Shown here piece after piece: positions 5,339 through 62,365 of a stretch of DNA of 64,000 bases (its first letter is position 1; each line of letters starts with the position of its first letter). This DNA comes from Camelus ferus. Lineage: Eukaryota. The translations under genes were made by a program, and so were the position numbers. The stretch spans positions 57,910,001 to 57,974,000 of the forward strand of contig NC_045696.1 of the NCBI RefSeq assembly GCF_009834535.1. Reading direction: 5' to 3'. A model generated the notes under the pieces. The model had not been told where the DNA came from. It did not search any database and saw only the letters and a program-made list of their open reading frames with translations.

Positions 5339-6373
5339 CTGTGAAAGAATTATTCATTAATGACAGATCACAGAGTTTAATTTTCTCATAATTCTCTCAA
5401 AAAAGATGCCAACATATAATAACTCTTTACAAAATTACATAATAGTTAAACAACATATTATACATGGACATTGCATATTAACAATCTAAATTCATTCATC
5501 AGGGAGTCAAGTGAAATAATTGCGGGACTGGTGGAAGACCAATCAAAAATATTATAAAGTAAACGTGAACACTCATGGCAGTAAGCTTATTAAAGGGACC
5601 TACCAGTTTTCACACATAAATATTTTATCTTAGGGGATCCCACCCCCAAGTAGCTAGCAATCCATACAGCCCTTAGAACAGAGCAGAAATTCAAATGGCT
5701 TACTCAGCTAATTAAAAATGTATTTTAAACTTGCTTACAAAAGAAAACATTGAACAAAGAATTTAAGAGCAATCAAAATGCAGAAAACTTTATTAAACTT
5801 TTGCAGTCAATGGATATATTAATTATCTTCATTATAATGACGGTCTCATGGGTATATACACACGTCAAAACTCATCAAATTGCACACATTAAATATATGC
5901 AGTTCACTGTAGCTTGATTATACCTCAATAAATCTGTAGAAGAAAATCATACACATTTAGCAGTGATTTATATTTACAAATCTGATAAAGTTTACAGTAA
6001 TTTAAAAACTCACATTTTCTATGTCCTTTTCTGCACGAAAGTGGCATAGACTTGCCACTTCAAAACTAGAGATAACTATAAGAAAAACCTCAGTAATTGC
6101 TTACATAGTCTAAAAAGTATGTATGTGTGTGTGAATATATACATACATATGGCTTAAAGAATTTCATGGTTGGAAGGGAAAATGGTTTTGTTTCTAGGAG
6201 AAATTCTGCCTACATTCACTATGAAACTTTCCATCTGGGTAAGATGAGATTTCTAGAATACTCCCTATTATGAACCATGGATATCATATCCAAATGGTAA
6301 AACTAAGACCCTGAATGCAAGACCGAAGGAAAAAGTATTTCCTTTGACATGCTTCTCTTGTTTCATTTTTTAC

Positions 6374-6505
6374 CTGCTCCTGCACATCTTCAAACTCTGA
6401 GCTGAGCAACTCTATGAAGATAGGCACAGCTCCTGCCTGAATCACAATCCGGGTCTGAAGAGAATTTCCTGAAGCAATATTTGTCAGTACCCAAGCTGAT
6501 TCAAA
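6374..6505 (-). CDS. KPNA1: KPNA1 exon 6 ([44 protein letters not shown])
   Basis: 132 nt, AG/GT bounded, WxxxN NLS-binding motif. Confidence 0.97.
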
Positions 6506-9500
6506 CTATAAAGATAAAAATAATTTCATTATCTTGTATTTAATATAGCTTATATCTTATAAGTATATCTTATAATTTAATATAGAATTTAATAGCTTGT
6601 TTACTTATTAACAAAAAGGTTTTCTGTGCATGAGGAAAAGAATCTGAGATCATTATTTGCATAATCTATCAGGTAAATACTATGTTAATTTTAAAATAAT
6701 AATTCCTGAAGAAATACCTTAGCCTAGAGAAATATTCAGGGTATCTAAAACATCAGATCAAGACAGAGTTAACATGAGACGATCAGAATAGGGGAGTGCT
6801 TCATATACTGAATGGAATGGTCTCCCAATATATGAATGGAGGGGAAAAAAAGGAGAACACTGTACATTAATATGATCCCATACTACACTTTCTAAAAGGG
6901 TTAAGAAGGAATAGATGTATTAATTTACTTATTGCACAGACTATCTCTTGAAGGAGTCACAATAAACTGTAAATACTTGTTACTTACATAGAGAGGTCAG
7001 GGTGAATGGGAAGCAAGTATGAGAAGGAAAGACATTTATCACAGTAAAGTCTTTATGGATCTTTTGGCCTTAAACCATGCATTTATCTAATAAAAATAAA
7101 ATTAAATAATTTCTACAGGATGGGAAAAGTGAAGTCGGGAAAGAATGTTAGTGTAAAATGAGTAAAATATACGCAGAGTGAAAAAGGCAAAAGACAATTT
7201 AAATAAGTAGGTCAAAAAGAGTTAACAGGCACACAGTTAATAAAAATTGCAACTTCAGAGGAGAAGAGCTTATAATAAATGAGAAGACTCTAAACCAAGG
7301 CACAGAGGTAAGACTCTTTTAAAAAGAGCATTCTTAAAGGATGATAAACTGGAAAGCAGAAGGTATGAAGGATATTGTGGCCAACAAAAAATATATCACA
7401 TTACTAATTCTACAGATTTCTGTAGTAATTTGACTCTTTAGCCTAATATGGAGAAACCCAAGAATGAACCCTTAAAGCCCAAGAATAAACTCATATTTCT
7501 ATTCAGAGTTCTTAATTAAATTTTAGTTTTGTTTCCTCCTTCTGTTCTGTCTTCAGTTCAGTGATATGCTCCTTGAATAAGAAATCAATTAAAAGTCATC
7601 AAAAGATGGAGCCAGGACTCTTTTTAAGCTTCTGGGTCAACTGAAAGCCAGCTGTCATATGGAGAAATGAAGCATCAATCACTGGGGGCAGGGGAAGATG
7701 GAAGAAATGGGGAGACAATTAGAGCACAGTCCAAAGCTACATGAATGATAGCAAATTCATAGCAGAAGACCCTTTAAAGGGGATATTCAAAGAAACCTAT
7801 AAATGTGATATACAGAAATGAGATCTGAGATACAGTGATTTGATAGCCAATTAGGGCCCTGATATTACAGCAGTAGGGAGGCCCAGACTAGGAGCACCAC
7901 AATAAAAGGGAGTATTTTCTGTCTGATAACTTAGAAGTTTGGAGATTTTTAAAACACTGAGTATCGCAGAATAAAAACTCATCACATATCTCCTCTATAA
8001 TGATTCATACCAATGTTCAAAACCTTTTCAATCTGTCTGAATTTAAACTTTCCATTTATACACTACTCTGTATTTTCAAAGCACTGCTCACACACTTTCA
8101 GTGTTCCTTACAACAACCCAGAGAAGCCTGGCTTTTCTAGTTTACGAATGAGGAAACTATCAGAAAAAGATATGAGTAATGAATGTTACATAGTCAGTCA
8201 AAGAGAACTGGATTACAGCCTCCTCATCTAGTAGGTTTATGAGCCCAGTCATAGTTTCCACTCTGAAATATACCTGTAACACTGACAAGAATCTTGACTG
8301 CTTGTAGTTTTGGTATCAAGGACAAGAAATTTCAAATAATGATATGCCAGATTATTTAATGAATGCTAAAAGGAAAACACTGTTCACCTAAAATGCAGTT
8401 TCTTTTGCTTACTAGGAAAATTAACTAGTAAAAGGGATATATGACATGAATACGAAAGCAAACTTTCCTACAAGAAGGCAGGCTCAAAGTTCGACAGTCA
8501 AAAAATGCAAACTTTGAGGAAAAGCAACCTGTAGAGAATGAGCAGACAGACATACCAATCTTATCAAAGAGAAAATAGTTTGCAGTGAGATTTTGATGCA
8601 AAAGAAATGGTAACAATAACCTGAGTAAAAAAAGGATATATTAAAGAGCTCTCAATGAAAAGAAATTAAAATAGTAATTGCTGCCAGAATTCAAACTGCT
8701 GCTTATCTGAAGAGATTCAGCACCAAAGGTCTCCCAGGAAGTGAGAGGGAATTCCAGATGATGCTGAAGTGAATAAAATGGAGAAGCAAAACAATATAGA
8801 GTGACAATGATTAAGAAAATGGAGAATAAGTAAATAAAAGCCTGAACATGAATGGAAGAAAATGGAAATTAGGCCATCTCAGCAAAAAAAGAATGTACCA
8901 GAGTTGTGTTTATTACTAAGAAGTACAAACCGACTATAACCTCTGTGAAGAAAATTCTATGTCTCTCTTGCTAAGAATAGAAATCAGAAAATAGTTTCAT
9001 CATTATTGGGGACAGAATTAGATGAATAACTAAAACCAGAGGGCCACTGAAAACTCAAATTATATTCAAGAATTAATAAGGCAGTAAAACACACACACAG
9101 GGTGCTGATTATTTTGATGTTTACCTTGTAAAAACTCATTAAGCTATATTTGTGCAATTTTCTTTACCCGTGTGTGTATATGTGATATACATGTATGTAT
9201 GAGAAAGAAGAGGGATAGAGAAGAGAAAATTCCCCATGAGTACAGGCTCCTGTTAAAGTGTTGGAATAGCAACTTTCAAATGTGTTTAATATGTAAGTAT
9301 GTTTTTTTAAAAACCAGTTGTACTTTGAACTATGTAGCTTCTCTTTCACTGGGTATTGCAGTCATTATTTTTTGAGCAGGAGGAATGTTTCAGCCTTGGG
9401 TCCCAAACTAGAATTTATCATGAAAGAGTTGGAAAATGGGAATGCATAGAGTTGGTTGATACCAAAAACAACTGCATACAGTTATAACAGAAATGGCCAA

Positions 9501-9614
9501 AAAAAAGTAATCTAAGTAAGTCAGCATGCAACTCAAGAAAAACTCAGCAGCATGATGAAATGAAAAATATCTAAAAATGGTTATCACCTGAAGTAATAGC
9601 CAAAATAACTACAA

Positions 9615-12150
9615 TGTTTACCTCCTCTTTGTTATTCCAAACTACTATATTCCAAGAATGGGATCATGCAGCTGTGATTGCTTATAAATTATAATTCCAC
9701 TATTATATTTCACTGTCCAGAACCTGCTAAAATAAGGCTACAACTGAAATCTAAAGGATACACTGAAGATTTGGTATGTTCTCTCTTTCCTTTTCTCAGT
9801 CTCTACCTTCTGGTGCTCAGTTCCTTAAGTAAGGAAAATGAGAATCCAAAGCTGAAGTACTTCTGACCTCCTATCAAGTTTCCCACTCCAGGTTGAGGTA
9901 CGCCTGGTTCCCTTTCTCCATTTGGATCAGGACTCTGTTGCTGGCCACTTTGCCGGTTCCACTCTGGTTCCTAGCAAATGCCAGGCTCACCTGGAGAGCA
10001 AGTGAAAAGAGAGGCTCACATCAGAAAAATAAACCCAGATATCGAACTCTGCAGAGAACAGTGCCTGAGTCATCTAAGCAACCTTTCAAGATAGGTAGAG
10101 GGATCAATGAGGATGGGAAAAGATGTAGAAGGATGAAGGCTTACTGCAGTTCATCACATTTAGCTTTCAGAGGGGACCAGAAAGGTAGAAATGGGAAAAC
10201 TAAATCAATTTAATTCAAATTTACAACTTTAAGAGAAGTATCTGTTTAATGACTGGAACTAGGAGTTACTGACTTACTTCTAGCTATTTTTTATAAGTTT
10301 CTATAGGAAGGTTTGGGAATGCAACATCTCAGCATTGCTAAGGACTATACACAGATGCTGGACCTGGACTCCAAAAACCAATCAAAGTGAGCCCAGGGAA
10401 TATATCATAAGGCAGATCAATCTCATGTTAAGGACTCAAGGATGTCTGTGGCCTGTATGTCACTGAAATTAAGAATGCTCTTAGTTAAACAGCATTGTTT
10501 GCTTCCAAAATCCTAGATTCCACCCATATTCATCTCATCTGAGGGCAAGTGAGTATCTAGGTAGCACTGCCCAAAGCAGGCATATTTTTATCTCCCTAGT
10601 TTGAAGTACCCCACTGATTTGGGGATAAGGAAAGCCAAAAAGGGAGTGATGAGACTTTTCATTAGGATTCACAGTTCTTTATCTATGGAATGAAGGGGTT
10701 AAGTTTGTTCAAGGACTTATCAGTGAGTAACTAATATGACCATATATCATTATTCTCTTTCTAGAAGAGAAATGGAAAATGTCCCATTTCAAAGACGTAC
10801 TATTCAGATTTCTAATAAGCAGGGAGAAGTATCAGGGACAACTTACATCCTAGAGCTCTCCAGGAAGACAGAGGAAGGAGTAACCTCCAAGCTTCCAGAG
10901 CATGTCTAATTATTTGAGCATGAAGCCTCCTGGCTCTAAGGTATCCATCAATATACTTGCTCCTCCTGCTTCTGGGGTGGTGAAGGTTACCCAATAGTCA
11001 CACTGGAGAAAGAACATCATGTTGTTCTTAAATGTACACAGAAGAAAAGCTGAGGATGATGACCTTTAGATAATAAACAGGTTGGTTATCTCTCAGGCTT
11101 TTGATAGCTAAAGTGAAAATCTTGAGGTGATCACTTCCAGAGGAATCATTTCTCAATCTTTGAGTCTAATTACAAGGGTGGAATCTGAGAATTTAGATAG
11201 AAGCAAATTAGAGATTTCTGAAGGTTTTCATCTTCAGATGTGTTAAGATACACACTTCAGAATTACAGAATCAAAAATGATGTAGACTTCACATATGTTA
11301 GCCAGGAGAGGACACTGTCTGAGAGAATATATCATGCTCTTTACAGAGACTGGAGAAAGCAGGGATGGGAAAAGACCTGTTTCTCTGACATTTTTCATTT
11401 CAGGACTAGTTATACCATCTTCCTTTAATGCATTAAGGAACTGGACCTCTGCAACCACCTACTAAAAACTGCTAGATCCAGGAGCAAATTTAGTGTCTCC
11501 AAACCACTCTTACTATCGTAGAGAGGATAGAAACATTTTCACATGAACAAAATGATAATTTTCCCTACCTCCCTTTTTCTTCCTACAAAGCTTTTCAAAA
11601 GATAAACTGCAGTAAGGCTCTTCATTTATTCCCTCTGGTTCTCTTGACAGGTTGCTTAGGGGCTCAGGCTCTGTTCTCTGCAGTGTTGGTTGTCTGGATT
11701 TCCTTTTTTCTGAGAAAAGTCCTCTTTCTTTGATCTCTAGATGAACCTGATTATTTTCCAGGTGGCTGGTGATCCTGGCCTTAGATGGGGACCAGAATTA
11801 CAATCCAGAAAGCAGCTAGCAAAACAGAATCTTAATTCAAATGAACTCGGGGATTAGTAAATGTCAAACTGGAGAAGAAAAATTGATGGGACACTGAAGT
11901 ACTCTACCTTTTCTGGATTTCTTGTTTTTCCTCTGGAAGGAACTCATCACCGCAACAAAGAGAGTAAAAGAAGGAGAAAGATGGGATGGGAGGAAAGGAG
12001 AGAAAATATCAAGACAAAGCATCAAGTCTTACGAATTATCGTTAATGCTCTGGACAGAAAGGAACCTGGGGAAAAGGACTGTCACTTACAAAAATGCCCC
12101 AGTGCTTACAGCCTTACAGCAAAGGCAAAATAAACAAGGGGGTGAAAGTT
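9615..12150. repeat. Long diverged inverted repeat (near-palindrome) in KPNA1 intron 5
   Basis: Collinear reverse-complement anchors with coordinate sums of about 21.7-21.8 kb, e.g. 10049-10091 vs 11642-11683, 10140-10151 vs 11605-11616, 10515-10525 vs 11176-11186. Confidence 0.85.
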
Positions 12151-13056
12151 TAACTTTATGATTAACTTGTTATTAGTAAATATTTACTTGGAAAAATAAC
12201 CCCATTTTGTGATCTACCGGGCATGTAGTCAATCTTTAGAGTTGCAGAATCTCTCTAAAGGGCCTGAGCCATTCAGATTAGATCCTGCAAGTGAGAATTT
12301 AGGTATCACAGGTATTTGTTAAAAAATAACACAGAAACTGATTCAGTTGGTTACTTCAAGGAAGTTGAGCTACTAAAAAATTACATTTATTCAAAATCCA
12401 ATTTTATTGAGGAAAAATATAGTATTCTAAAATTTCTAAATAACTCCCAGGATGAGAGTCAGTTAACAGTTGTTTCTTTTTACTGTAAAAATTACCTAAT
12501 CCAGAAGTTGTAGAATTTCCTCTTGGAACCCCTATATAATACAGTATTGATAGGCTAAATTAACATAACAGAAAACACACAGATTCCTTACAAGGCTATC
12601 TCCTTGTCAGCAACTTTGGGGTCAAGCAAGAGGGAGGATTAATTAGGACCAGGTTTGGGAATCAGTGAGTCTCTGATCTAGCCCACGTAACACAGACCTA
12701 AGAAGGCCAACAAGTATAATCTAAAAATCCTTCAAAACCAAATTTTGCATGGCCCACACTTACATCCTTATAATGGCTCCTCTACTACAAACAATCCCCT
12801 ATTAGGTAAGTATGATCCACAATCATTATAAAATAATCTTTCACATGACTAAAAATGACAAGAATTTTAAAGAGTAAAACCAAGGGCCTGGATGTTAACA
12901 AAGCTATCAGAGCAATCTGCAATGTAGTTGTGGGGAACATCAGTATCAAAAAATTAATCCCTCATCTAGATTAAAATAAGTTACAAATCTGTATACAAAA
13001 TGTAAATTTACAATGCAAATTTAAGATATGAGGCAAGAAATGAAAAAGGTCCGCAC

Positions 13057-13151
13057 CTGCAGCGTACAATTCTCTTTTCGTTTGAGGAACTCCACAAACC
13101 TGGCCACTACTCCTGGTGTGCTGATGACTTCATCAATAGGAGGATTAGGTT
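13057..13151 (-). CDS. KPNA1: KPNA1 exon 5 ([32 protein letters not shown])
   Basis: 95 nt ARM-repeat peptide visible in ORF 13021..13269. Donor CAG|GTGCGG. Confidence 0.97.
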
Positions 13152-13549
13152 CTGTCTCCCCATAAAATAAAAGGAAAGAAGAGAAACAATCCTTTGATTT
13201 CAAGGCAAGGACTTTATAGCTCAAACTTACTTCATAATATCCCTCCCTCCATTTTAGCATCTCTTTCATGTTGGAAATCTAAAAAAGAAAAAAAAATGTA
13301 AAATTGAGTTCCATCACTTTGAGACTAGGGTAGTTTAAAAGGTTTCACAATCAGATAAGCCTTAACGAGGAAATAATGGGCAGAATTCTTAAAAATTAAA
13401 AGTACTGCCTCTACTATTTTAGAAAACTTAGAAGGCAGAGGAAAAAACATCAAAAGACAACCACTATTATTATTTTAGTATACTTCCTTCTAATCCTTTT
13501 CCTATGTATGAGTTTTAAGTCTCTCTTTAACATAAATTGTCTTAAGAAA

Positions 13550-14500
13550 CTGGATAAGGAGATTCTGAGTGTGCTTGCAGGATCTAATTTTATAGCTGTA
13601 GTGAGAAGTAGGAGCCAGCAAGAATTCACTAAGGATGACTTGCCAAATTAATCTCATATTTTATGGCAGAGTATTTTATAAATGAAGTCATTCAGTAGAA
13701 ATTTGCTGGGTGAGGAGATAAATGTCCTAAACATTCAGCATGCTAATTTCAGCAAGAGACTTGACAAAGTTTTTGATGACACTCATGTAGCAATGCAAGC
13801 AAAATGGCAGTTGGATTACAGTACTCCTAGGGAATCCTAGCCAAGTCAGTGGTCTTACTGGAAGAGGTGACTAATGGGTAAATGTTAATTTGGAGCAAGC
13901 TCTAATAACATGTTCTTCACCTGGCTCAACTTTTTTATTAACCATTCATACAAATACAACAAATAAATTTGATGATTACAGTAAAAATAAAGTAGTTAAT
14001 ATGCTAGATTACAGAAACAACATATAGAAAGAATAACAATAAACCAAAGTTGACAATAAAACAACAGGTATAAAGCAAAATTCAGCAAATGATTTTTTTT
14101 TTAAAAGCAGTTAAAAAACCACATGACAGTAATTTCACAGTTATGAAGAGAAGTCCTAAGAAGTTTATTTAGACTGCTGCAAATACAATGAAACATTACT
14201 ACTATGCCATGACTACCATAACTGATGCTAGCTTGGAGGACTATATTAGAATGTATGGTGTCAGCACAAGGGAGACAATCTCCCACCACACTTTAGAGTA
14301 TTAAGAATGCATCTGGAGGATTGTATTCTAATTATCAGAGGGATGGCTGGCAAACTTGAATACATGCTGGAAGGCAGCAGAGTGGTGAAAGGTCTCAGAA
14401 AGCCATATTATCTTAGAAACCCATTAGGGTCAGCATGCTGAAAACAGACGACATTTTTAGAGAGGTGGGGAAAGTATACATGATAATGACCCTTGGATAT
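13550..14500 (+). mobile_element. Ancient CR1/L3 LINE fragment
   Basis: aatttcagcaagagacttgacaaagt (DFSKAFD-like), catctggaggattgtattc and ggtgaaaggtct resemble the CR1 RT 3' region. Confidence 0.6.
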
Positions 14501-14755: not shown

Positions 14756-15269
14756 CTACCGACATTTTAATATGGCTGAGAGTTTCAGAGTTCTTACTTG
14801 CCCAGACAAAAAGAAGTATCATATTCCATTCTATCCTAATTATACCAAAAAAAGGGTAGTTACCCTGCTCACTAATAAATCCATACTTCAATTCACTGTT
14901 AAACTGCTAACATTAAAATCAACAATCATTGCTCTTTCAAGTGGTATTTTACATTTTTCTTAAAAGAGTGGAGTTTCTCAATTTGAATTAACATAAAATA
15001 CTGCTACTGTTCTTATCACTTTAAGATCTTTCATAAGATAGTTCAGAAATGAAAATGCCGCTGCTTTCTGGTCCTGGTAAGATCGCACAAATAAATAAGG
15101 AAATTCAAAAGTTAGTCATGGTTCATAAATACACATTTGTCTGTATGCATCCTTTTATTCTGTTGAGAGACACTCCAAAGCAAGTTATCTGTAGTGTGAA
15201 AAACAGATTATAGAAAAGTAGTATTTTGTAAATAAGTGAAAAAATATACTTAACATATTCAGAGCTCAC

Positions 15270-15369
15270 CTTTTGAAAGCAGTTTTCTGAATTTCTGTGT
15301 TGCTGAAAGCTGTTGCTCTGGGCTATTGGAAAATATCATTTCAATCATGTCGGAAGTAATGACACCACC
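15270..15369 (-). CDS. KPNA1: KPNA1 exon 4 ([33 protein letters not shown])
   Basis: 100 nt, cag|GGT acceptor and AAG|GTGAGC donor, in frame. Confidence 0.97.
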
Positions 15370-15756
15370 CTGGGATCACAAACAATGAATTTTTAACTTT
15401 AATTCAAAGGAAAACAAAGACAGTATAAACTGTGGCCAAGTTATTAATTATACTTATATAGAAGAGTTACACAGAGGTTGGACAATCTTTTCATGTAGAA
15501 ATGTATGAGATGATTAATAATGTGATGAAGCCAAAAGTTTTTGTCCATCATAAATAGCTCACCACAGCAAGAAATTAAATCTTAGTAGTAAACACTAAGA
15601 CAAGGAGTTTACTCTTCTTCCTTTCCAGTTCATCACATGACAGGCTGTTCCTTGTCATTCAGATTAAGTTCTTAAAGAAGGCTTTTCAAGACCTCCAAAT
15701 CTAAAGCAGCCACTCCATCTCTATCACATCACTCTATTTTAATCCTATGCCTAGCT

Positions 15757-17252: not shown

Positions 17253-18133
17253 CATCCACAAAATACTTTATAATCATTTAATATCCACTTAAAAAAAAAG
17301 ACAGCTCAACTTCCTGAAGGGCCTAGAGGAATTAACCACAAAATGATAGTGTTGGCAACAATATCTACAGATTCCAAAGCAATTTAAATTGTTCTAATTC
17401 CAAAAAATTGGTCAGTAAAAACTGGAGATACATGACATAAAAAAAGAGAAAGATCTATAAAATACTGTGCACGATATGCTACCATTTGCCGCCTAAAAAG
17501 GAGGGGGGATTTTTCTTAAAAAGAGTAAATAAGAATCTAATAACAGTGGTTGCCAGTGTGGAAAGAACCTGGGTGACTGAGGTAGAAGAGATTTTTCTTG
17601 TTTTGAAAACCATGTACATATATATATACTAAAACATTATACAACTGATCATAATAAGCTAGAAATCTAGAGAAGTGTGATCCATATAAATAAAGCATAA
17701 TTTTTATCTGTTTATGTAACCTCAATGTTACAAAATGGGTTGCAACAGAAAATTCCAATAGTGGCAACACAGAGCAAATTTTTAAAGTCATGTGAGTATG
17801 TCCAATTTTGTAACTGAAATGAGTAACAAACTGGGACTTCCTTTAAAGCATCCCTTAGTATTCAACTCTTAAGGAATAATTTTATTTTATGATTATCTTT
17901 TTAAGTTTTAATAGCCAAATTATTCTTCCTAATTTAGTTAATTCTGTTTAACTACATGTTATTCAAAATATAATAAACATTTAATGAATCATGAGATTAG
18001 GTATATGGCTTCCTTTTAAATATGAAATGCCAAGTACTTTTTATAGCCATCTAACCATTTTTTTAAACCCCAAAAGAGATCGAAGCCTCGTCAGAAAAAG
18101 AGTAAAAAGAATTTCTTTCATTATCCTACTTAC

Positions 18134-18241
18134 TGGTGCCATCTCCATGTTATTAATCTGAGCCTCGTGGAAGCCTCCATCTGACATAACTTCTTCTTCT
18201 GTTTCTTCTTCTGCTGTAGCAACATTTCTTCGCTTGAATAA
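18134..18241 (-). CDS. KPNA1: KPNA1 exon 3 (LFKRRNVATAEEETEEEVMSDGGFHEAQINNMEMAP)
   Basis: 108 nt, AG/GT bounded, continues frame from exon 2, contains the autoinhibitory KRRNV motif. Confidence 0.97.
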
Positions 18242-18315
18242 CTGAAAAATAAAAGACTATTACTAAAGTAATTCTACCAAAATGGAGTTCAATATTCAAA
18301 CACTAGACACCCCAC

Positions 18316-19470
18316 TTTTTTTTTTGAAGTACAGTTGATTTACAATGTTCTGTTAGTGTACAGTAAAGTGATTCAGTTACACACACATATATTCTTTTTC
18401 ATATTTTTTTCATTATAACAAGCTATTGAATATAATTTCTTGTGCCATACAGTAGGGCTTTGCTGTTTATCTATTCTGTATATAGTAGTTTATTTCTGCT
18501 AATCACACATTCCCAATTTATCCATCCCCTTGCTTTCCCCCTTAGTAATGGTAAGTTTGTTTTCTCTGTGAGTCTCTTTGTTTTGCAAATAAGTTCATTT
18601 GTGTCATTTTTTTTGGATTTCACATATAAGTGATATCATGTATTTGTCTTTCTCTGTGTCTGACTTATTTCTCTTAGTATGATAATCTCTAGGTCCACCC
18701 ATGTTGCTGCAAATGGCATTATTTCATTCTCTTTTATGGCTGATTAGTATTCCAGCAGTGTGTGTGTATGTATGTGTGTGTGTTCATCCAATCATTTGTC
18801 AATGGACATTTAGGTTGCGTCCATGTCTTGGCTATTCTAAATAGTGCTGCTATGAACATGGGTGCATGTATCTTTTAAAATTATATTTTCGTGCAGATAC
18901 ATGCGCACAGATACTGCTGGATCATATGGTAACTCTATTTTTAGTTTTTTAAGGAATTTGTGAGGTCTTTTCTGATGCACTACTGGGATACACATGATTG
19001 CTCCAGTTTCTCAACCTAACTGACGCACATCACTATGTAAGTTTAAAGTGTACAGAATGAGGATTTCATTTACATATGTTGTGAAATGATCACAACAGGT
19101 TCATCTAACATCCATCTTCTCATACAGATACAATAAAAAGAAAAAAATCTCTCCTTATGGTGAGAACCCTTAGGATTTACTCTCAACATCTTTCCTGTAT
19201 ATCATACACCAGTGTTAGCTATAGTCATGTTGTACATTACATCCCCAACACTTATTTATCTTATAACTGGAAGTTTGTACCTTCTTACTACTACCTGCTT
19301 CCAATTCTCCCTCCCCTAATCATTTGCCTCTGGCAACCACAAGTCTGAGTACAAGTTTGGTTTTTTTAATTTTTTTGTTTTTAGATTCCATATGTAAGTG
19401 AAATCATAGAGTATTTGTCTGGCTTATTTCACTCCACATAATGCCTTCAATGTCCATCCATGTTGTCACA
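18316..19470 (-). mobile_element. Two adjacent L1 3'-end fragments (about 18316-18960 and 19020-19470)
   Basis: Poly-T followed by typical L1 3' UTR / ORF2-end sequence (ccatgttgctgcaaatggcattatttcattc). Confidence 0.8.
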
Positions 19471-20744: not shown

Positions 20745-22315
20745 GACTGAAGACGACAAAAACAGATGGCAAGATATACCGAGTTCTTGGATTGGAAGAA
20801 TCAGTATTGTTAAAATGGTCATACTACCCAAGGCAATATAGATATTCAATGCAATCCCTATCAAATTACCAATGATATTTTTCATAGCGCTGGAACAAAA
20901 AATGTTAAAATTTGTATGGAAACACAAAAGGCCCCAAATAGCCAAAACAGTCTTGAAAAGGAAGAATGGAGCTGGGGGAATCACACTCCCTGAATTCAGA
21001 CTACACTACAAAGCTACAGTAATCAAAGCAGTATGGTACTGGCACAAAAAGAGACACATAAATAAATGGAACAGGAATAGAAAGTCCAGAAATAAACCCA
21101 TGCACTTATGGTTAATTAATCTATGACAAAGGAGGCAAGAATACACAATGGAGAAAAGATAGTCTCTTCAACAAGTGGTGCTGGGACAACTGGAAAGCTA
21201 CCTGTAAAAGACTGAAATTAGAACATTCTCTAACACCATATACAAAAATAAACTCAAAATGGATTAAAGACTTCAATGTAAGATCAGATACTATCAAACT
21301 CCTAGAGGAAAACATAGGTAGAACATGCTTTGACATAAATCACAGCAATATTTTTTTTTCAAACCAGCTCCTAGAGTAATGGAAATAGAAGCAAAAATAA
21401 ACAAATGGGATCTAATTAAACCTAAAAGCTTTTGCACAGCTAAGGATACTATCAACAAAATGAAAAGATAACCTACAGAATGGGAGAAAATATTTGCAAA
21501 TATTGTGAATGACAAGGGATTAATTTCCAAAATATACAAACAGCTCATACAACTTAATATCAAAAAAAAAAGCAACCCAATCAAAAAATGCACATTAGAC
21601 ATAAATAGACATCTCTCTGAGGAAGACATCCAGATGGCCAACAAGCACATGAAAAGATGCTCAATATCACTAATTGTTAGAGAAACTACAATTTTTAGAG
21701 AAACAAATCAAAACTACAATGAGATGTCACCTCACAATCAGAATGGCCATCAATAAAAAGTCCACAAACAATAAATGCTGGAGAGAATGTGAAGAAAAAG
21801 GAACTCTCCTACACTGTTGGGAATATAAACTGGTGCAGCCACTATGGAGGACAGTATGGAGATTCCTTAAAAAACTAAAAATAAACTTATCACATGATCC
21901 AGCAATCCCACTCCTGGGCATATATCTGGAGAAAAATATAATTTGAAAAGATATATGCACCCCAATATTCACAGCAGCACTATTTACAATAGCCAAGACA
22001 TGGAAACAACCCAAATGTCCATCAACAGATAACTGGATAAAGCAGATGTGGTACATATACGCAATGGAGTATTACTCAGCCATAAAAAGGAATGTCATTT
22101 GCAGCAACATGGATGGACCTGGACATCGTCATTCTAAGTAAAGTAAGTCAGAAAAAGAAAAATACCATATGACATCACTTATATGTAGAATCTAAAAAAA
22201 GGACACAAATGAACTTACCTACAAAACAGAAACAGACTCACAAACATAGAAAACAAACTTATGTTTACCAGGGCATAAAGGAGGTGGGAAGGGATACATT
22301 GGCAATTTGAAACTT
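20745..22315 (+). mobile_element. L1 ORF2 3' part plus 3' UTR (degenerate)
   Basis: ORFs 20872..21126, 21505..21756 and 21674..21946 are L1 ORF2 peptides ([36 protein letters not shown]). Confidence 0.92.
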
Positions 22316-22995
22316 GCACCTTTAGGGGAGTGATGGAAGTGTTAGCTATCTTGATTGTGGAGGTGGTTTCATGGGGTATACACACCTAACAAAATTCTTC
22401 AAATTGTACATCTGAAATATGTGTAGTTTACTGTACAGGAACCATACCATAATAAAGGTGTTAAGAAAAATAAAATAAAATACTATACAATAAAGAATGT
22501 AAAGATAGACAAACAGACATGAAGCAAGTATAGAAAATTGCTGACAATTACTGAACCCAAAGTATGGGCTTATGAGGTTCATTAACTACTCTGTATTTTT
22601 GTACATGTTTACAAATTTTCAAATTAAAATTTAGAATGAATAGCAATGTTCTGTTGGTCACTTGAGAATTCATTAACAAACATACACATAAAATCTTAAA
22701 GAAGTTGTAACTTTAGAAAAGTAAAATAGACTAAAAAAAAAGGCCAAAATGTTAAACAGTGGTTATATTGATAACATGGGAACCTGAGAGATTTCTTCAT
22801 TCTTGCATTCTACTTTTCATTACATCCACTCCCCTATCCCTAAAAGATGCTGATTTTATAGTTGGGAGGGGGATATATGCATATACACACAATATGTATC
22901 ACACATTGTTAAAACTAAAATAAAGGAAGGTGATGTCAGTATTAAAACGGAACACTAAGTTCTTTAAGAGAAATAAATGAGAGTAAAGGACTTAC

Positions 22996-23124
22996 CTGCT
23001 CTTCTCTTTTCTGCTTACGTAACTGCAGCCCTTCTTCCTCCCTCCTTCTGCGCATCTCATCAGGATTCAGGGACTTATTTTTGTAACTTTTCAAGCGAAA
23101 GTTCTCTTTTCCTGGGGTAGTCAT
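22996..23124 (-). CDS. KPNA1: KPNA1 exon 2, start of IBB domain ([43 protein letters not shown])
   Basis: Recognised importin alpha-5 N-terminus. Acceptor tag|AAATC ATG (exon begins 23129), donor CAG|GTAAGT, 129 coding nt. Confidence 0.98.
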
Positions 23125-23244
23125 GATTTCTACAAAAATGAGGGAAGGACCTTAGCTTACCATAAAGAGCTCTGTTATTTTAATAGTTCAGACTTTTAAA
23201 CATATACATGCCCAGAACCAATGGATAAGAATGTCAAACGGTTT

Positions 23245-26200
23245 ACTTTAACAGCTTTATTAAAGTGTACAATTCAACATCTTATAGTATATTCACAGCT
23301 ATATGCAACCATCACAAGTCAATTTTTTTTTAAAACATTTTCATCACCTCAAAAAGCTACCACTCGTATTCTGGACATTTCATATGAATAGAATCATGTG
23401 TGATCTTCTGTGCCTAGCTTCTTCCACTTAGCATATTTTACAAGTTCATCCGTGTTGCAGCATATTATTAGTACTTTACCCCTTTTTTGGCTGAATAATA
23501 TCCCACTGTATGGTTATACCCCATTATATCCATCCAATCATCAAATAATGGACAGCTGGATTCTTCCTACTTTTTGCTATTATGGATAGTGCCTCCATAA
23601 ACATTTGTAGACAAGTTTTTATGTAGACACAGGTTTTCATTTCTCTTGGGTATGTAACCTGGGAGGGGAACTGCTAGGTCAAATGGTAACTCTGTTTAAT
23701 CATTTTAGGAACTGCCAAGCTTTTTCCAAAGTGACTGCATTATTTTACATTCCCACCAGCAGTGCACAAGGGTTGCCAATTTCTCCACATCCTGGCCAAC
23801 ACCTACTATCACTTTTTTTTTTTTTGGAAGTATAGCTTATTTACAATATTGTGTTAGTTCTAGGTGTACAGCAAAGTATCACAACTTTTTGATTCTGGCC
23901 ATCTTAGTGGGCTAGATGTCTTTTAACTTACTTTTTTTGCCAACTATATATCTTTCCCCCAAAATGTCTATTTAGATTCTCTGCCCATTTTTAAATTGGG
24001 TTGTCTTTTTACCATTAAGTTGTAACAGTTCCTTATTTATTCTAGATATAAGTTCCTATCATATATGACTTATTAATATTTTCTTCCATACTTCCACTAA
24101 GATGTCTTTTCACTTTCCCGATGGTGTACTTTAAAGCACAAAAAGTCTTTAATTTTGATGTAACCCAAATTAATCTATTTTTCCTTTTGCTGCTCAATGA
24201 TTTTAGTGCCATCTTAACTCTAAGTTTCCTCCTAAGAGGTTAAAGTTTTAACTAACTCTTACATTCAGGTTTATCATCCATTTTGAGTTAATTTTTGTAT
24301 ATGGTATGAGGTAAGGGTCCAACGTGATTGTTTTGCATATGGCCACCAGTCGTTTCAACACTATTTGTTGAGAAGACTATTCTTTCTCCACTGAATAGTC
24401 TTAACACTATTGTTTGAAAATCAGTCACAGATATATGGTTTTATTTCTCAACTTTCAATTCTTTTCCATTGATCTGTGTATGTGTATCCTTTTGCCAATT
24501 CCACACAATCTTGATTACCATTTCTGTAGTAAGTTTTAAAATCAGGAATGTATGAGTACTATTTTATTCTTTTTTAAGACTGTTTTGGCTTACCTGGGTA
24601 CACCACTATTCCATGTGAATTTTAGAGTCAATCCGTCAATGTCTACACAGAAGTCACCTAAAATTCTGATATGAACTGCACTGAATCTGGAGATTAATTT
24701 GGGAAGTACTGCCAATCTTAGTATTAAATCTTTCAGTCTATGAAGACAAAATTTTTTTAACTTAGATCTTTAATTTCTTTCAACAACGTTTTATATTTTT
24801 CAGAGTGTTTTACACTTCTTTTGTTAAATTTACACGTAAGTATTTTAATATTTTTGATGCTATCGTAAATGGAATTATTTTAATTTCACTTTTGGATTGT
24901 TCATGCCAAGTCTATATAAAATCAATTTTTATGTATTGATTTTGTATCCTGCAACCTTGCTGAACTGAACTTGCTTATTAATGCTAACACTTTATTAGTG
25001 GATTCTTAAGGATTTTCTACATACAAGATCATGTCATCTGCCAGAGACAGTTTTGCTCCTTTTCTTCCAATCTTTTGTTTGCTTGTTTGTTTTGGGGGAG
25101 AAGTAATTCAGTTTATTTAATCCATTTTTTTAGTGGAGGTACTTGAGATTGAATCCAAGATCTCATGCATGCCAGGCACACACTCTATCACTGAGCTATA
25201 CCCTCCTCCCTTTTCTTCTGATCTTGGTGCCTTTTCTTTTTCTTGCATAACTGCCATGGCTAGACCCTCCATACAATGTCAAATAGAAGTGGAAGAGAGC
25301 AGACAATCTTGTTTTATTCCTGATCTTAGGGGAAAGCATCCAGTCTTTCATCAACAAGTATCATGTTACCTTTGGATTTTTTTCATAGATGTCCTTTAAC
25401 ATGCTGAAGTTCCTTTCTATTCCTAGTTTTTTTCGTGTCTTTGTCAGTGAAAGGTGTATTTTGTCAAATTTTTCTGCATCTTTGCAAAGACTATGTAACT
25501 TTTTTCTTTATTTTACTGATATAGTACATAATTGGTTTATGAAATTTAAACCAACCTTACATTTCTGGGATAAATGCCACTTGGTCATGGTGTATAAATC
25601 TTTTTATATGCTGCTGAGTTTAGTTTGTTAGCATTTTGAGAATTTTTGTGTTTATATTCACAAGAGATATTGGTCTGTACTTTTCTTGTGATGTCTTTAG
25701 CATAAGGGTAAGTAGCTTTATAAAATAAGTTGAAAAGTATCCTCCCCTCTTTCAATTTTTTGAAAGAGTTTGTGAACAAATAGTACTAATTCCTCTTTAA
25801 ATGTCTGATAGACTTCAGCAGTGAAGCCATGTAGGCCTGGGCTTTTCTTTGTGGGTACTTTTATGATTAATTCAATCTCTTCACTTGTTATAGGTCTATT
25901 TAGATTGTTTCTTACGTCAGTTTCAGTAGGTTTTATCTTGCTAAAAATGTGTCCATTTTATCTAAGCTATGTATCTTACTGGTATATAGTTATTCATAGT
26001 ATTCCTTTATAATTCTTTTAAGTTTTATAAGGTAACCAATAATGTTCCCTCTTTCATTTCTGATTCTAGTAATTTGAGTCTTCTGTTCTTTTTTTGTCAA
26101 TCTAACCCAAGGTTTACCAATTTTGTTGATGTTTTCAAAGAAACAGTTTTTGGTTTCCTCAATTTTCTCTATCATTTTTTCACTCTCTAATTCATTAATC

Positions 26201-36971: not shown

Positions 36972-39366
36972 TTGGAAGGCTAGTTCTAAGTCTACAAAAT
37001 AGCCATCACACCCAGACTTCCTCCTCCCTTGTGCCCAGCCAGGCAACCATCCCTCCCCAAAGCCCTACAGATGTTGAGAGGATTACTCTGAAAAAACTAG
37101 AGACTCATGGGACACTAGTGAGGTATACACAGGATTACACAAGCACAATTAACAGTGAGAATGACAGCTCCTTTTCTAAGGTAAGTTCTCGGAACATAGC
37201 ATTTAGGTAAGAGATTGGAGGCACTCTCTCTCAAGGAAACCAACCAGGCCAAGATAAGAGAACTGTGAGTCCTCTCCCCCTATAAAAGGCCACCAGCAAC
37301 TCTGCCCACCCTTTAGACTGGTAGTCATGTAGGCTCAAACACATCCCAAAACTGCCCACCCTTTAACAAGCCATACCTATAGTTTCCAATTCAGTTTTTA
37401 ACACTTCACTCTTAAATATGAATGGACAACCTTAAGTTTACCAGACATCTGAGAAAAGCCTCTATAGAGAAAAGACTGCAATGAAATAAAGGAACTTAAA
37501 AGAAGTAGAGCAATGAAAGGTACCAAAAAACCCAACTAGTATTACTATCCTTAAAAGGATTATAGTGTTTATAAAACAATGCAAAGATACCATAAGAATG
37601 AGCTCTAGGAAATTAAAACTATGGATAGGAGCTTAAAATTCAACAGAAGGTTGGAAGATTAACACTGAAGAAATCTCTCAGGAAACAGAACAAAGAGACT
37701 AAGTGATGGAAAATAGGAAGGAAAAGAAAATTAAAAGAACAAACTAAGAACTCTAATACCTAGTAATCCAAATTCCAAGAGAGAAAAAGTTGATGAGGAA
37801 GATTATTAAAGAAACAGTGCACCAAATTTAGAATATTCATTCAGTGAAAGACACCATGGACAAAACTAGCACAAAGATGACAGGCATAGAGAAGATATTT
37901 TCATCCTAAAACAGACCTTCACAAGGAACTCCTGCAAACCAAAAAGACAGGAAACCCAAAGGAAAGATAGAGAAAAGGACAAAACAGACAATTATCAAAA
38001 GGGAAAACCTGAAGGGATACAAGAGATGCTCAAACTCATTAGTTATCAGAGAATGTACATTAAAACAATACTACTTTATACTTATTAGACTAATAAAAAT
38101 TAGAAAGTTAGATAAAACCAAATACTGGCAAAGATGTGGGCAAACAAGAACCCTCCTCCATTGCTAGTAAGAGCATAAACTAGTTCTCGAATTCATTGAC
38201 TCAAGAATCCCACTCCTGGATATATCTCAGACAACTTCTTACAGAGGTCCATAAGGATGCACAAGGAAGAGTATATTTACCACAGTTTATTTGTGATGCC
38301 AGAAAGTCAACTCAGGTGTCAGTGATTAGGGAATGAAAAGTAAAATGTAGTAGATGTATACTGGAATTCCACATTATACACAATTATATGTACACACAAC
38401 AAAACAGAAAGGTCTCCAAAACAATGCTGAGTGAAAAAGACTAAGAAACAGAACAAAGTCTGTAACAATATATAAACTAAATACACACACCCCACCCACT
38501 ACATATTTCACAATGATTCACATATAATCAAGGAATGTTATCAACCACAATGCAATGACTGCCTGCTAGAAAGGGTACTGGAAGTAGGGCTCAGAAATGA
38601 AAAATTTAAGGAACTTGTATAGTCTGATGATAGTTTCAAGAACTGGAAAGCTAATTAACTCTACAACTCTTTTACCTAAAGTACCCCCCAAAATAATATT
38701 AATGATAAAATAAATTTCCCAAAACTAAAGGACATGAATTCCCAGCTTGTAAGGGTCCATGGAGTGCCCTTAAATGAAAAAAGAACCACATCTAGGCACA
38801 TTAGGGGTTAAAAATAATATCCTAAAAGCTTCTAGAGATTGGAGGAAAGATGGGGAAGGTCACACACAAATCAAGAATGAGAATGGCTTTGGACATCAAC
38901 AGCAACGTTAGAATGCAGAAAACAACAGAGCTATGACTTCCAAACTTTTTAAGCCTAGAAATTTATACTCAAATTATTGATGAAATGTTAAGGTAGAATA
39001 GATTTTTTTTTAATCATGCAAGATCTCAGAAGGTTTTTCCTTCCCAGGTACCCTTCCTCTGGAAGTTAAGAAAATATGGAAAATAGGAAATCCAGTAGAG
39101 AGAAGGGCATTGAGAGTTTTAAGGGTGACATAAAGAGAAGTTCCAGGATAACAGCTGTGAAGCAGGCCTAAAAAGTAACCAGTCCAGATTGCATTAAAAG
39201 GACAGAGGTTCCAGGATAGCTGTCTCATGGATACAAAAGGGGGAAAAAAGGTATTACTCCTGGAAAAACCAAACTGGTTAAGAGAAGAAATGATACAATA
39301 CATTGCATGGTTCAGCTATAAATATTTGTTATAACTGAACGATAACTTAATAAACACCTGTGATAA

Positions 39367-54491: not shown

Positions 54492-54832
54492 TCAGGGCTG
54501 TTGCTTGCTCATTTGTCCTGATGAGTAATCATGTGACTGTACATGATCCTGCGTGCAAGTCCACAAATATTGGGGCACAGCCTGCGTGTCACTAAAAATG
54601 ACAAAGATTTCAGGGCTGGAAACATTGTCAACCACACTGTCATGGCTATCTATGGCTCCAGGAAGCAACGGCGGAGGAACAATATTTAACTGTTGACCCT
54701 GGCAGAAGGAGCCTGTGAGTACTTCAGCCTCAAACACATAGATAAGCTTATCTGTGGCAGGTGTTTTCTTGACGTGGTATGCTATGTTTTTGAGGTTCTT
54801 GGTGAAATATATTCCAGCTCCATATTTTGGAT
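54492..54832 (-). CDS. PARP9: PARP9 last coding exon (PKYGAGIYFTKNLKN...VVDNVSSPEIFVIFS...SKQQP*)
   Basis: cag|AT CCA AAA TAT GGA GCT GGA ATA TAT TTC. YGAGIYF and DSVVDN PARP motifs. TGA at 54494-54492. Confidence 0.95.
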
Positions 54833-55927
54833 CTGATAAGAGAAAAAAAATTTAAGGATTATTATGATCTGGCAAATCATATTGCCTATTTCAGTACTCG
54901 TATGTATTTTCTCTCTAGTCCTCCAAATAATCACCATCTCCTAGTCCCAAGTCTCTGTATCTGTAGCAAAGACAGCCAAAGCTGTTCACTTGTGGCAAAT
55001 TATCACTAATATCATGAACATAATACCTTACATCTTAATATATCATGGGAGTTTACAGAGGAGTCTATGATTTACAAAGCGTTTTTACATTGATTATCTT
55101 CAATTAATCTGTGACTTGGGTAGTATCTCCATATAACAGATGAAAAATCTGAGGTTCAGAGACAGCATGACTTAAGTCAACATTACAAACTAAGCAGCTA
55201 AGAAAGAGCATAATGGAGGGAAGGTTCTATTTCTTCTTAGAACATGGCCTGACTTCTACAAGCTACAAATAAGGATATCTCTAGAACTCTTGAGAATATA
55301 GCTAGTAAAAAAAAAAGCATCTAAGAAGGCAAAATGTCTCCCAAATTTGTGGACAGCATTACAAGAAAAATATGACAAAATAAGGGGAATGCTGAGCATA
55401 TGAAGTAATGTTAGTGTATATGCTGCATTGTTTAGGAAAAGACACTCAGGATTTAGGGGCCATAAACATTCTGGTTCCTAGAAGGAGTATTCTCTACTGC
55501 GGGGCAGGGGTAGGTCACCAGTTCTCACCATAGCCTGGCAAAATACCCCACAGAGAATTTCCACATGTTTTTGATCTAGGTGTGTCCTCACCAGGCAGTT
55601 TTCCAACCATCAGGCATCCTTAATACTACGATACCAAGGAGAATGTGCTCTATTCCAACCACCGGAAATGAATATTCTCCACTATGATATAAATGCTTGT
55701 GATCTATTTTATCTTCTCTGTAATAGTAAGAACACTCAGAAGGCAGAGAGCCAAACTCTGTACCTCAAGGTAATCCCTGCTTAATGCCTTTTCTACCCCT
55801 ACTTAGCAGGAAAAAAAATAGAAAATTCCTTTAAAGCCATATTCTCTCCCCCTCCTTCCCTTCCATTTTTCCCTCCCTCATTCTTTACATTTACTTGGGA
55901 CTTAACCAAACACTTTCATATTCTAGA

Positions 55928-56205
55928 GCAGCACTGAACAACAGAAATGCAATGGGGCCACATATGTAATTTAAAATTTTCTAGTAGCCGCATTAAAAAA
56001 GGTAAAAAGAAACAAGTAAAATTAATATTTTTATTTAACCTATTATCCAAAATGTTATCATTTCAACATGTAATCAATATAAAAATTATTAAGGAGATAT
56101 TTTACATTTTCTTCTTTGGTAGTGGTCTTTAAAATCCAATGTGCATTTGATACTTAACTGCACATCTCAATTTAGATTAACCACATTTTAAGTGCTAAAT
56201 AGACA
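55928..56205. mobile_element. MER33-like hAT-Charlie DNA transposon
   Basis: gccacatatgtaatttaaaattttctagtagccgcattaaaaaa...gcacatctcaatttagattaaccacattttaagtgct. Confidence 0.7.
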
Positions 56206-59114: not shown

Positions 59115-59289
59115 CGCAGGGCACTGAGTACATTCTTTGAAAGCCAACTCTGCATACCATTTTGCAGAACTGGTAGGGGACTTGCTGGAACAACTTGTGG
59201 CTCACAGGGTTCACATGGGTCCTCTCTTCCATCATTTTCTTCCTTCTTTGGAAGGCAGCCATGAGAAGCGCATTGTCTATCTTCTCCAC
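59115..59289 (-). CDS. PARP9: PARP9 exon, ART domain (VEKIDNALLMAAFQRRKKMMEE...LFQQVPYQFCKMVCRVGFQRMYSVPC)
   Basis: ORF 59065..59289. 175 nt, cag|GTG acceptor and G|GTAGGT donor. LFQQ in place of the usual LFHG is diagnostic of PARP9. Confidence 0.95.
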
Positions 59290-59903
59290 CTGTAGCCCAA
59301 AGAAGGGAAAAACTGAAAAAGAGACTGAAGAACTGCTACTTAAATTGCCTGATATTCTGCTTCAAAAATCAAAGCACTTCTGTGCGTATGACTTTGCATG
59401 TAATTTGCTTTTCATATGAAGTTGCCTAAGAGTCTCCCCTGGCCCCAACCCTCTTGTATTTTGACTTTTATCTCTTCAAAATTCCCTGTCCCTTCTTTGA
59501 TAAAAATTCACTGAGCGAACACTATGTGCCAGGCACTGGTGATGAAATGGTCAACAACTGCAGACACAGCCTCTGCCCTCTTAAAGTTCATGGTTTAGTA
59601 AGAGATAAAAATAGGTAAACAATTATGAAACAGTGTGATAAATGGTATTCCATTTCTTTAAGATAGGCAGATAGCTTTCCCTGAGTCTTGATCTATGCTT
59701 CTAAATATCCTGACATCATTTCTACCACCTGATTCCAACTATACTCCTTGTACCTGCCCATCTCTGCCCTCCTTGAAGACTAATTCCTAGGATCCCAGGT
59801 CAGTGAGCAGCTAGCTTAGAGTCATCAGCAGGTAAGTTTTACTTCTGGCTGCAGAACTAAGTGATAGCAAGATGAGTCAAATCCTTCCCTTCATTAAGTA
59901 TAC

Positions 59904-60040
59904 CTTTATAACCTGCAAGCCACAGTCTTCAAACTGTTTCTTCTGATCCTGAATTTCTCGAGTTGAAAGCTTTAAGCATTTCAGAAAAGTATTTTCCTTC
60001 ATTTCATTCTGGTTTTCTGGTTGCTGATCAGTCTGTTGCC
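59904..60040 (-). CDS. PARP9: PARP9 exon (QQTDQQPENQNEMKENTFLKCLKLSTREIQDQKKQFEDCGLQVIK)
   Basis: 137 nt, AG/GT bounded, phase-compatible with both neighbours, DQKKQFE.CGLQV motif. Confidence 0.9.
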
Positions 60041-61904: not shown

Positions 61905-62365
61905 CATTCTCCAAATTATAACCAGTGATCTTTCTAAAATAGAAGTCTGAACTTATCTTTGCTTAAAATCCTTCAAGGCTCCCCATGTGTTTCTAGAAAA
62001 ATTCTGAATACTTACTTTCAGTGATTTATAAAAGTCTTGCATAATCTAGGCCCAGCTACGGTCTGATTTCTTGAAAGTTCCTTTTTTTGCCTTACTAACT
62101 CCTACCTACTCTTCACTTCTCCATTTACGACACCTCCTCTGAGAAGCTTTCCCCTTACCTCCCATGTCTGGGTTAGGTGGCTTTCCTGGTTGCTGCCAGA
62201 GAACTTTCACCTTCCTCTTCCATAACTAACCTGCTTACTTCTCAGTTTCCCCAATTCGATTTTGAGTGGGAACAATGTCCGTCTTATCACTGTATCCCCA
62301 GCAACTAGCACAATGCTTGGCACATATCATGGGTGCAATAAACATTAGCTGAATAAATTAATCAA
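61905..62365 (+). mobile_element. L2 3' region
   Basis: agtgatctttctaaaa...gcttaaaatccttcaaggctcccc...cactgtatccccagcaactagcacaatgcttggcacat...aataaacattagctgaat. Confidence 0.7.

Follow-up and report, generated by a model that had tools for sequence, protein, structure and literature searches.

Several kinds of described sequence come close to the element reported here, an inverted repeat in an intron of the importin alpha gene KPNA1 of Camelus ferus. Inverted pairs of Alu, short interspersed element (SINE) or L1 copies in introns resemble it in geometry and in the predicted pairing of the pre-mRNA, and differ from it in that the arms of the KPNA1 block belong to no detected repeat family. 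The human non-repetitive intronic inverted repeats collected by dsRNAscan (bioRxiv 10.1101/2025.01.24.634786) have, going by the main text of that preprint, single-copy intronic arms, a kilobase loop and predicted pairing as well, whereas the KPNA1 stem is more interrupted than the typical entries and its own pairing is a prediction. Pairs of conserved complementary regions (PCCRs) likewise comprise two complementary regions in one intron, a configuration enriched in the paper that catalogues them (Kalmykova et al., 2021, PMC8052449); according to the text of that paper, a PCCR is short, spanning tens of nt, and is recognised by its conservation and complementarity combined, while the KPNA1 arms measure 450 nt and have a known duplicative origin. 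Unprocessed gene-fragment pseudogenes, pieces of one gene duplicated as DNA into an intron of another, are similar in that homology to the parent exon continues into the 3' untranslated region (3'UTR; 53 nt) and upstream of the exon (21 nt), in that neither poly(A) nor intron loss is seen, and in that disabling indels are present and codon-position bias is lost; they are dissimilar in that here two copies stand in a head-to-head palindrome, apparently made in one step, and in that parts of the KPNA1 arms are unusually well kept in other mammals. One-step palindromic gene-fragment insertions are, to our knowledge, rarely caught with the parent still recognisable. The stretch analysed here, called the window, is 64,000 nt long (assembly GCF_009834535.1, contig NC_045696.1, positions 57,910,001 to 57,974,000 of the forward strand). 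In its KPNA1 intron 5, so numbered on our assumption that the first KPNA1 exon is non-coding as in the human gene, lies an inverted repeat that we consider to be, probably, a head-to-head pair of dead, DNA-level copies of the 3' end of CBLN1, the gene for cerebellin-1, made in one event, with pairing as a by-product and with parts perhaps co-opted.

A preliminary description of the window had proposed that the left and right halves of this block are reverse-complement homologous along one diagonal, and several methods bear this out in part. A reverse-strand blastn comparison of positions 8000-14000 with themselves gave one strong match, 9782-10113 against 11619-11981 (E-value (E) 9e-29, 65% identity over 367 columns including gaps), and a seed-based repeat finder gave the same anti-diagonal. 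The Smith-Waterman score was 81, compared with 12.0 +/- 1.5 for dinucleotide shuffles (z 45, none of 200 shuffles as high), and nhmmer comparison of arm with arm gave E 2.7e-31 and 3.2e-33. Gapped alignment and nhmmer set the limits of two arms of about 450 nt with 1331 nt of spacer between them (Table 1); identical bases number 306 among 409 aligned, 94 gap columns fall into 24 runs, and the Kimura two-parameter distance is 0.31. Four anchors pointed out earlier (9812/11951, 9919/11843, 10049/11683 and 10140/11616) all lie within the mapped arms, and the proposal that a KPNA1 intron holds an inverted duplication that is old and made of single-copy sequence is supported.

The extent had been put much larger. 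A stem reaching inward to a small loop finds no backing, with 13 of 200 shuffles scoring as high for the inner part (10218-10880 against 10881-11543) and 105 of 200 for the inner half of that part; the anchor 10817/10971 is at chance level (102 of 1000 shuffles as high). Outward, the anchor 9713/12057 is at chance level too (288 of 1000), as is a further cell outside the arms (916 of 1000), and for flanks extended to 9300/12480 and to 8700/13080 the shuffles reached the observed score in 200 of 200 and 92 of 200 cases. The anchor 10515-10525/11176-11186 alone stands out: its exact 11/11 core is real and 0 of 1000 shuffles were as high in its own cell, but that cell was chosen post hoc, which biases the test and leaves its significance suggestive. 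Instead of filling the intron with a stem of more than 1 kb, the block occupies 2.24 kb of 6.55 kb and offers about 325 interrupted bp around a loop of 1.33 kb. Searches for tandem and direct repeats found nothing relevant to the block.

The arms had been described as not assignable to any family, and an assignment can now be given. When a protein collection was searched with the open frame of 94 residues that the right arm carries on the minus strand, it returned five relatives, one of them a pig UniRef entry (P0003), and a library-wide HMMER search with the pig entry retrieved a cerebellin-like protein of sturgeon together with a bat KPNA1 model (P0011). In tblastn with a cerebellin-like protein, the left arm reads on the minus strand the cerebellin segment AFA...VLIQMEKG...YL.LE (19 of 32 residues identical at 9981-9886) and continues after a frame shift with cerebellin GNL.GG.KY..F (8 of 12 at 9883-9848), and the right arm reads on the plus strand the cerebellin C-terminal KYSTFSGFLVFPL plus a worn copy of the upstream segment. 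Solved cerebellin-1 structures gave concordant matches: the left-arm peptide, searched via a protein record 95% identical to the left-arm translation, corresponds to residues 83-116 (E 1.3e-5), and the right-arm interval 11861-11940 on the plus strand to residues 119-137 of chain 5kwr_A (E 0.0013), where 13 residues in a row are identical at the C-terminus of the protein. The two segments are adjacent in cerebellin-1. A sub-threshold Pfam C1q match at 9877-10020 on the minus strand (E 0.027, one of 79 frames) was shown to be real by the later cerebellin searches. Coding by the open frames of the arms, which are 123 and 94 aa long, was considered in its own right and rejected, since they belong to no Pfam family and shift frame between species.

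Among the four cerebellin loci of the genome, the arm profile matches one (L028, on contig C9) at E 1.2e-33 and the three other paralogues more weakly (4.4e-20, 6.2e-17 and 2.4e-9). The C9 locus is CBLN1, because the translation of its last exon contains both solved cerebellin-1 segments exactly. Over this exon the identity to CBLN1 is 126/190 for the left and 128/191 for the right arm (0.66-0.67), and to the other paralogues 0.54-0.61. A six-sequence alignment of the two arms with the four cerebellin exons, from which the segment coordinates in Table 1 are taken, runs from the start of the exon through the stop codon and, for CBLN1, on into the 3'UTR. CBLN1 homology within the arms reaches from 21 nt upstream of the exon to 53 nt into the 3'UTR. 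The two copies are oriented head-to-head, and both are disabled: left-arm indels of 1, 4 and 2 nt relative to CBLN1 break the frame, and the right arm carries six frame-breaking indels. These alignments show both arms to be homologous to the genome's own CBLN1 last exon, and on this comparison of sequences the cerebellin origin of the arms is well supported. From their position, the inner ~200 nt of the arms would derive from a cerebellin intron. As a separate observation, one cerebellin paralogue (L027, G000:C30:5398004-5398555) matches query residues 2-173 in a single stretch interrupted by four in-frame stops; a short intron may be included in it, or the match may be inflated by the artificial internal repeat of the query.

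The exon-derived part of the arms also records something of their history. Its 187 alignment columns comprise 95 in which both arms and CBLN1 are identical, 30 with a change private to the left arm, 29 private to the right arm, 22 in which the arms share a difference to CBLN1, and 11 in which all differ. Private changes spread over codon positions 1/2/3 as 10/10/10 on the left and 10/11/8 on the right, and these counts show that, judged by codon position, coding constraint has acted on neither arm after their separation. The shared differences bear the signature of coding constraint, 15 of the 22 being third-position changes (p 0.0009). Either, then, the common lineage of the arms was still coding-constrained, or all these changes are CBLN1's own. 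Together the patterns suggest that one event made both copies and ended the coding constraint. The copies are present in pig and in a vespertilionid bat, and since every foreign right-arm record is much closer to the right arm than to the left, the duplication would predate the splits between camel, pig and vespertilionid bat; from general substitution rates we estimate a date of the order of 100 million years ago. The Jukes-Cantor (JC) distance per arm is 0.17-0.18, and that of MIR and L2 copies to their consensus in this genome 0.36-0.44. Reading these distances as a duplication about half as old as MIR and L2 presumed neutral decay, which is unsafe given the cross-species conservation described below, and was given up.

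Transposable elements were considered as a source of the arms. In a search of the 2.09-Gb genome each arm matches only itself and its partner, and an old repeat from the window, used as control, gave 398 candidates, 40 of which were scored at 77-87% identity. In a background of 261 kb, made up of 200 kb of this genome and the remainder of the window, no match to the arm profile had E <0.01, and the control repeat had four. Repeat profiles grown from the background, one MIR-type (36 copies) and two from L2 3' ends (29 and 24 copies), which we take to be MIR and L2 from their resemblance to the consensus of these families, had no match in 9400-12400 at E<=10; the MIR-type profile has six matches elsewhere in the window at E<=0.01. 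An origin from MIR or L2, raised by two short arm stretches that seemed to resemble the MIR core and the L2/MIR 3' tail, was dropped because the grown profiles gave no match. No match above chance was found in the block with Rfam (best E 0.31 and 0.33), and none of 79 open frames across spacer and arms (9648-12169) reached the Pfam cut-off, a transposase included. By the genome search, with its lack of dispersed copies, and by the grown profiles, the arms are not transposon copies, and the earlier opinion that they are no ordinary interspersed repeat is supported. One old DNA transposon, ~2.2 kb in size, that carried long terminal inverted repeats and had captured a cerebellin fragment would reproduce the layout of arm, spacer and arm and the total size of such elements, and the small internal complementary island would suit it, but the genome search gave no other copy, the 79 open frames hold neither a transposase nor another Pfam family above cut-off, and reading of the sequence revealed no target-site duplication at either candidate pair of arm ends, which makes this origin highly improbable. 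Two minor matches may be recorded beside these searches: a two-copy seed at 38934-39198 (one of 14 seeds) matches 11920-11986 at E 0.006, and the arm profile matches 7533-7621 at E 0.0025-0.01, within a stretch (7490-7680) that is single-copy.

The preliminary description further held that the KPNA1 pre-mRNA folds into an imperfect double-stranded RNA (dsRNA) of more than 1 kb. Pairing of the arms is indeed predicted, but as a duplex of about 325 bp with interruptions. In its minimum-free-energy fold the RNA of 2242 nt joins arm to arm with 326 pairs in the KPNA1-sense and 318 in the antisense RNA; the longest predicted helix has 15 bp, and 71% of the arm bases are paired. Co-folding of the arms gave -362 kcal/mol, where 12 shuffles averaged -225 +/- 5.5; relative to separate folding of each arm the gain is -126. 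Such pairing is, by these models, what any inverted repeat of 75% identity would do. Predicted dsRNAs have, in the main text of the dsRNAscan preprint (bioRxiv 10.1101/2025.01.24.634786), medians of 17 contiguous bp and 77% paired bases where unedited, and of 31 bp and 85% where edited; the arm duplex falls under both sets of medians, which serve as benchmarks and not as strict thresholds.

It may be asked whether the palindrome was kept because the KPNA1 pre-mRNA needs a long-range duplex, be it as ADAR substrate, as a source of small RNAs or to switch splicing by looping out 1.33 kb. The arm-to-arm fold and its energy relative to shuffles would agree with such a need, as would the retention of parts of both arms in pig and of the right arm in bat, the coincidence of the conserved core at 11620-11713 with the longest helices, and the presence of the intron stretch in RNA libraries (RNA-seq assemblies of two runs contain 0.99 and 0.96 of the sampled words of 9700-12100, which shows only occurrence in such libraries; a run labelled feline metagenome, with a word share of 0.08, counts as no evidence). 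However, the transitions between the arms show no bias towards G-U: those leaving G-U number 23 on the sense and 25 on the antisense RNA (p 0.89), so that G-U is not in excess over A-C on the transcribed strand. Moreover, the 24 indel runs, 21 of which are not multiples of three, interrupt the stem with bulges, and helix length and paired fraction stay under the medians given in the preprint even for unedited dsRNAs. The right-arm core is near-invariant in six sequences, and the left arm differs from it at about one in six positions (82-83% complementarity); these mismatches are, in camel at least, uncompensated. The main text of the preprint does not mention KPNA1, which its supplementary tables may list, and the gene did not turn up in the text of the PCCR paper (PMC8052449) or in five of its supplement files. 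Literature on KPNA1 with an inverted repeat and intron, or with cerebellin, includes nothing on this locus, judging by titles and the openings of abstracts. A dsRNA function of the arms is not supported by these results, and we regard a duplex maintained by selection as distinctly unlikely to be the reason for the palindrome.

In other mammals parts of both arms are recognisable. In tblastn the pig entry agrees with camel at 70/75 residues in the right arm and at 37/39 in the left arm (its residues 75-113 against 9993-9877), the bat KPNA1 model at 46/64 residues in the right arm, and two further protein records match the left arm at 38/40 and 36/38. Within the best-kept stretch (Table 1), which is also the best-paired part of the arms, 21 consecutive residues agree between camel, pig and four further records except at two positions, where one of the four further records differs. 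Because the frames shift between species, it is the nucleotide sequence and not a protein that is conserved. A control frame of 71 aa from the spacer found itself only in the protein collection, against the five relatives of the right-arm frame. Neutral amino-acid identity between these orders is, by our own estimate, ~55% for pig and ~40% for bat. On these divergences, parts of both arms in pig and, moderately, the right arm in bat are better kept than neutral intron DNA would be expected to be, well above the expectation. The earlier suggestion that the block has been retained and does not merely survive gains indirect support from this conservation, which does not, however, point to pairing as its cause. 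A scan of metagenomes for orthologous DNA was set aside: of 59 pattern matches one locus was confirmed, at 28% identity, and it was judged unrelated.

A fully neutral relic, in which cerebellin fragments simply decay and both the conservation and the gene models are artefacts, is the natural alternative to any use of the arms. The even spread of private changes over codon positions, the frequent indels and the chance-level Rfam scores speak for it, and since the JC distance per arm is less than half that of MIR and L2, the divergence could stem from an event of the order of 100 million years ago with nothing but ordinary decay thereafter. Pure decay nevertheless sits badly with identities of 70/75 and 37/39 in pig and 46/64 in bat, in non-coding frames and above the estimated neutral values, and with a spacer frame that has no relatives where the right-arm frame has five; we hold it to be unlikely.

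The foreign records also suggest how parts of the arms might be used. The right arm offers a candidate 5' splice site at its inner end and the left arm a candidate 3' splice site with a pyrimidine tract (Table 1). By tblastn both the pig entry and the bat model leave the right arm at 11573, the pig entry to continue in the left arm and the bat model in KPNA1 exon 6; the pig entry thereby joins right to left arm over GT 11568 and AG 9991-9992, and the bat model joins the same donor to exon 6. Camel differs from pig, bat and one further record by 1 nt in the length of an A-run just upstream of the candidate donor (11573-11600). The captured fragments could be a structure-gated pair of pseudo-exons, in which pairing of the arms joins or hides the right-arm donor and the left-arm acceptor and thus sets the level of an unproductive KPNA1 isoform. 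If true, this would explain the conservation of both arms and of the best-paired core in pig and bat; we give it a slim chance.

The account that we prefer, dead CBLN1 copies made in one event, would run as follows. A single event probably copied a fragment from a working cerebellin gene and placed it twice in opposite orientation. Each copy starts with ~200 nt from upstream, continues with the last coding exon and ends 55-75 nt into the 3'UTR. The likely route would be break repair that used an ectopic template and switched strands. It would date to the order of 100 million years ago, and at the least to a time before the lineages of camel, pig and vespertilionid bat split. Transcription of KPNA1 reaches the right arm first, giving cerebellin antisense sequence in the pre-mRNA, and then the left arm, giving cerebellin sense; the two could pair in an interrupted duplex of ~325 bp closing a loop of 1.33 kb. 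This pairing would be a by-product of the duplication and not a selected function. The well-conserved parts would more likely have been taken over as sequence elements, as cryptic or alternative exons or as splicing or regulatory signals, which is the weakest step of the account.

Several observations weigh against this account. As to origin, nothing detectable next to the CBLN1 exon of today corresponds to the inner ~200 nt of either arm, which do not align to the CBLN1 intron, homology ending 21 nt upstream of the exon. Polarisation of the 22 shared differences with the paralogues, a noisy procedure, places 13 on the stem of the arms and 9 on CBLN1, and a lost cerebellin paralogue as donor would also fit this. 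The whole-genome DNA search that found no further arm copies also missed the CBLN1 locus, so that its sensitivity is limited and its blanks are weaker than they look. As to the role of pairing, the inner parts of the arms are at once best conserved and best paired, as those of a selected duplex would also be. As to exon use, this is seen in two automatic gene models only, one of pig and one of bat; the insert is absent from every other KPNA1 model of 309-986 residues, and in camel the 1-nt difference shifts the frame, so that the junction is not spanned by an open frame of the pig type. Finally, pig and camel share ~94% amino-acid identity in non-coding frames, far more than the JC distance of 0.17-0.18 per arm predicts, and therefore the rate has not been uniform. 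The cause of this uneven rate and conservation is the one feature that our account cannot explain.

Table 1. Features of the KPNA1 intron block and its flanking exons, in positions of the window.
Feature	Position	Strand	Basis or remark
Left arm, probable dead copy of CBLN1 3' end; cerebellin-sense equals KPNA1 sense	9771..10215	-	match to right arm; nhmmer to L028 E 8.5e-21
Right arm, probable second dead copy of CBLN1 3' end; cerebellin-sense on plus, antisense in KPNA1 pre-mRNA	11547..12012	+	nhmmer to L028 E 8.6e-19
Upstream (intron)-equivalent, left arm	10215-10017	-	
Upstream-equivalent, right arm	11547-11743	+	
Last-exon-equivalent, left arm	10016-9825	-	
Last-exon-equivalent, right arm	11744-11938	+	
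3'UTR-equivalent, left arm	9824-9771	-	
3'UTR-equivalent, right arm	11939-12012	+	
Spacer (loop), 1331 nt, single-copy, not palindromic	10216..11546	.	shuffle tests; whole-genome search matches the spacer itself only
Island within spacer, complementary to 11176-11207, nearly on the anti-diagonal of the arms	10498..10525	.	11/11 exact core; significance suggestive
Partner of the 10498-10525 island	11176..11207	.	complementarity
Best-kept stretch across species, one minus-strand frame (F28-L50 of P0002)	11620..11713	-	protein alignment, tblastn mapping; pairs with 10021-10100, site of longest predicted helices
GT of candidate 5' splice site (GGGAG/GTAGGG) at inner end of right arm	11567..11568	-	sequence read; pig and bat models appear to use it
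AG of candidate 3' splice site (ctcttttcacttgctctccag/GTGAGC) inside left arm, with pyrimidine tract	9991..9992	-	sequence read; used in pig model
KPNA1 exon upstream of intron (EPNPPIDEV...ENCTLQ)	13057..13152	-	motif look-up in minus-strand translation; equals missing chain residues 42-73 (32 residues) of 6wx9_A; bat KPNA1 model maps there
KPNA1 exon downstream of intron, Arm repeat	6374..6505	-	Pfam Arm E 2e-10; importin alpha-5 residues 74-118; tblastn of bat P0011

The host gene is identified as an importin alpha gene on the minus strand by its Pfam IBB and Arm exons. The exons at 15262-15375 and 6287-6505 match the solved importin alpha-5 (6wx9_A) at chain residues 8-41 and 74-118, and tblastn places the bat KPNA1 model exon by exon on the window, with one exon at 18095-18244. 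The host intron spans 6506-13056 on the minus strand (6.55 kb), of which the 2.24-kb block makes up 34%. G+C is 0.39-0.42 in the block (9500-12250) and 0.33-0.35 in the flanking intron, and the higher value would fit an origin in a G+C-richer cerebellin gene.

Elsewhere in the window, a PARP-family gene adjoins KPNA1, as at the human locus: open frames at 54495-63404 on the minus strand match the PARP catalytic domain (sub-threshold) and, at E 1.2e-10, a KH domain of PARP14 type. L1 remains occur further along the window. KPNA1 itself has an inverted pair of L1-type fragments of 1.4 kb (20784-22185 / 23381-24744, 61% identity over 1445 columns), which flanks the KPNA1 exon that opens the IBB domain (22945-23151). 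Inverted repeats flanking an exon are the geometry usually associated with exon circularisation. Another inverted pair lies at 18497-18957 / 21862-22318 (75%).

Should the whole intron prove to be conserved in the way that the arms are, the block would be an ordinary pseudogene curiosity. Under the account of two dead CBLN1 copies, a hairpin that could not be assigned becomes datable, as a fragment of CBLN1 copied twice and mirrored, apparently in a single repair event near the early placental radiation, and the CBLN1 parent, used as outgroup, separates what came before the duplication event from what came after it. Because the conservation of both copies is unexpected, the locus is a reasonable test case for the takeover of dead gene fragments by their host and for the use of the RNA pairing that a palindrome provides without cost.

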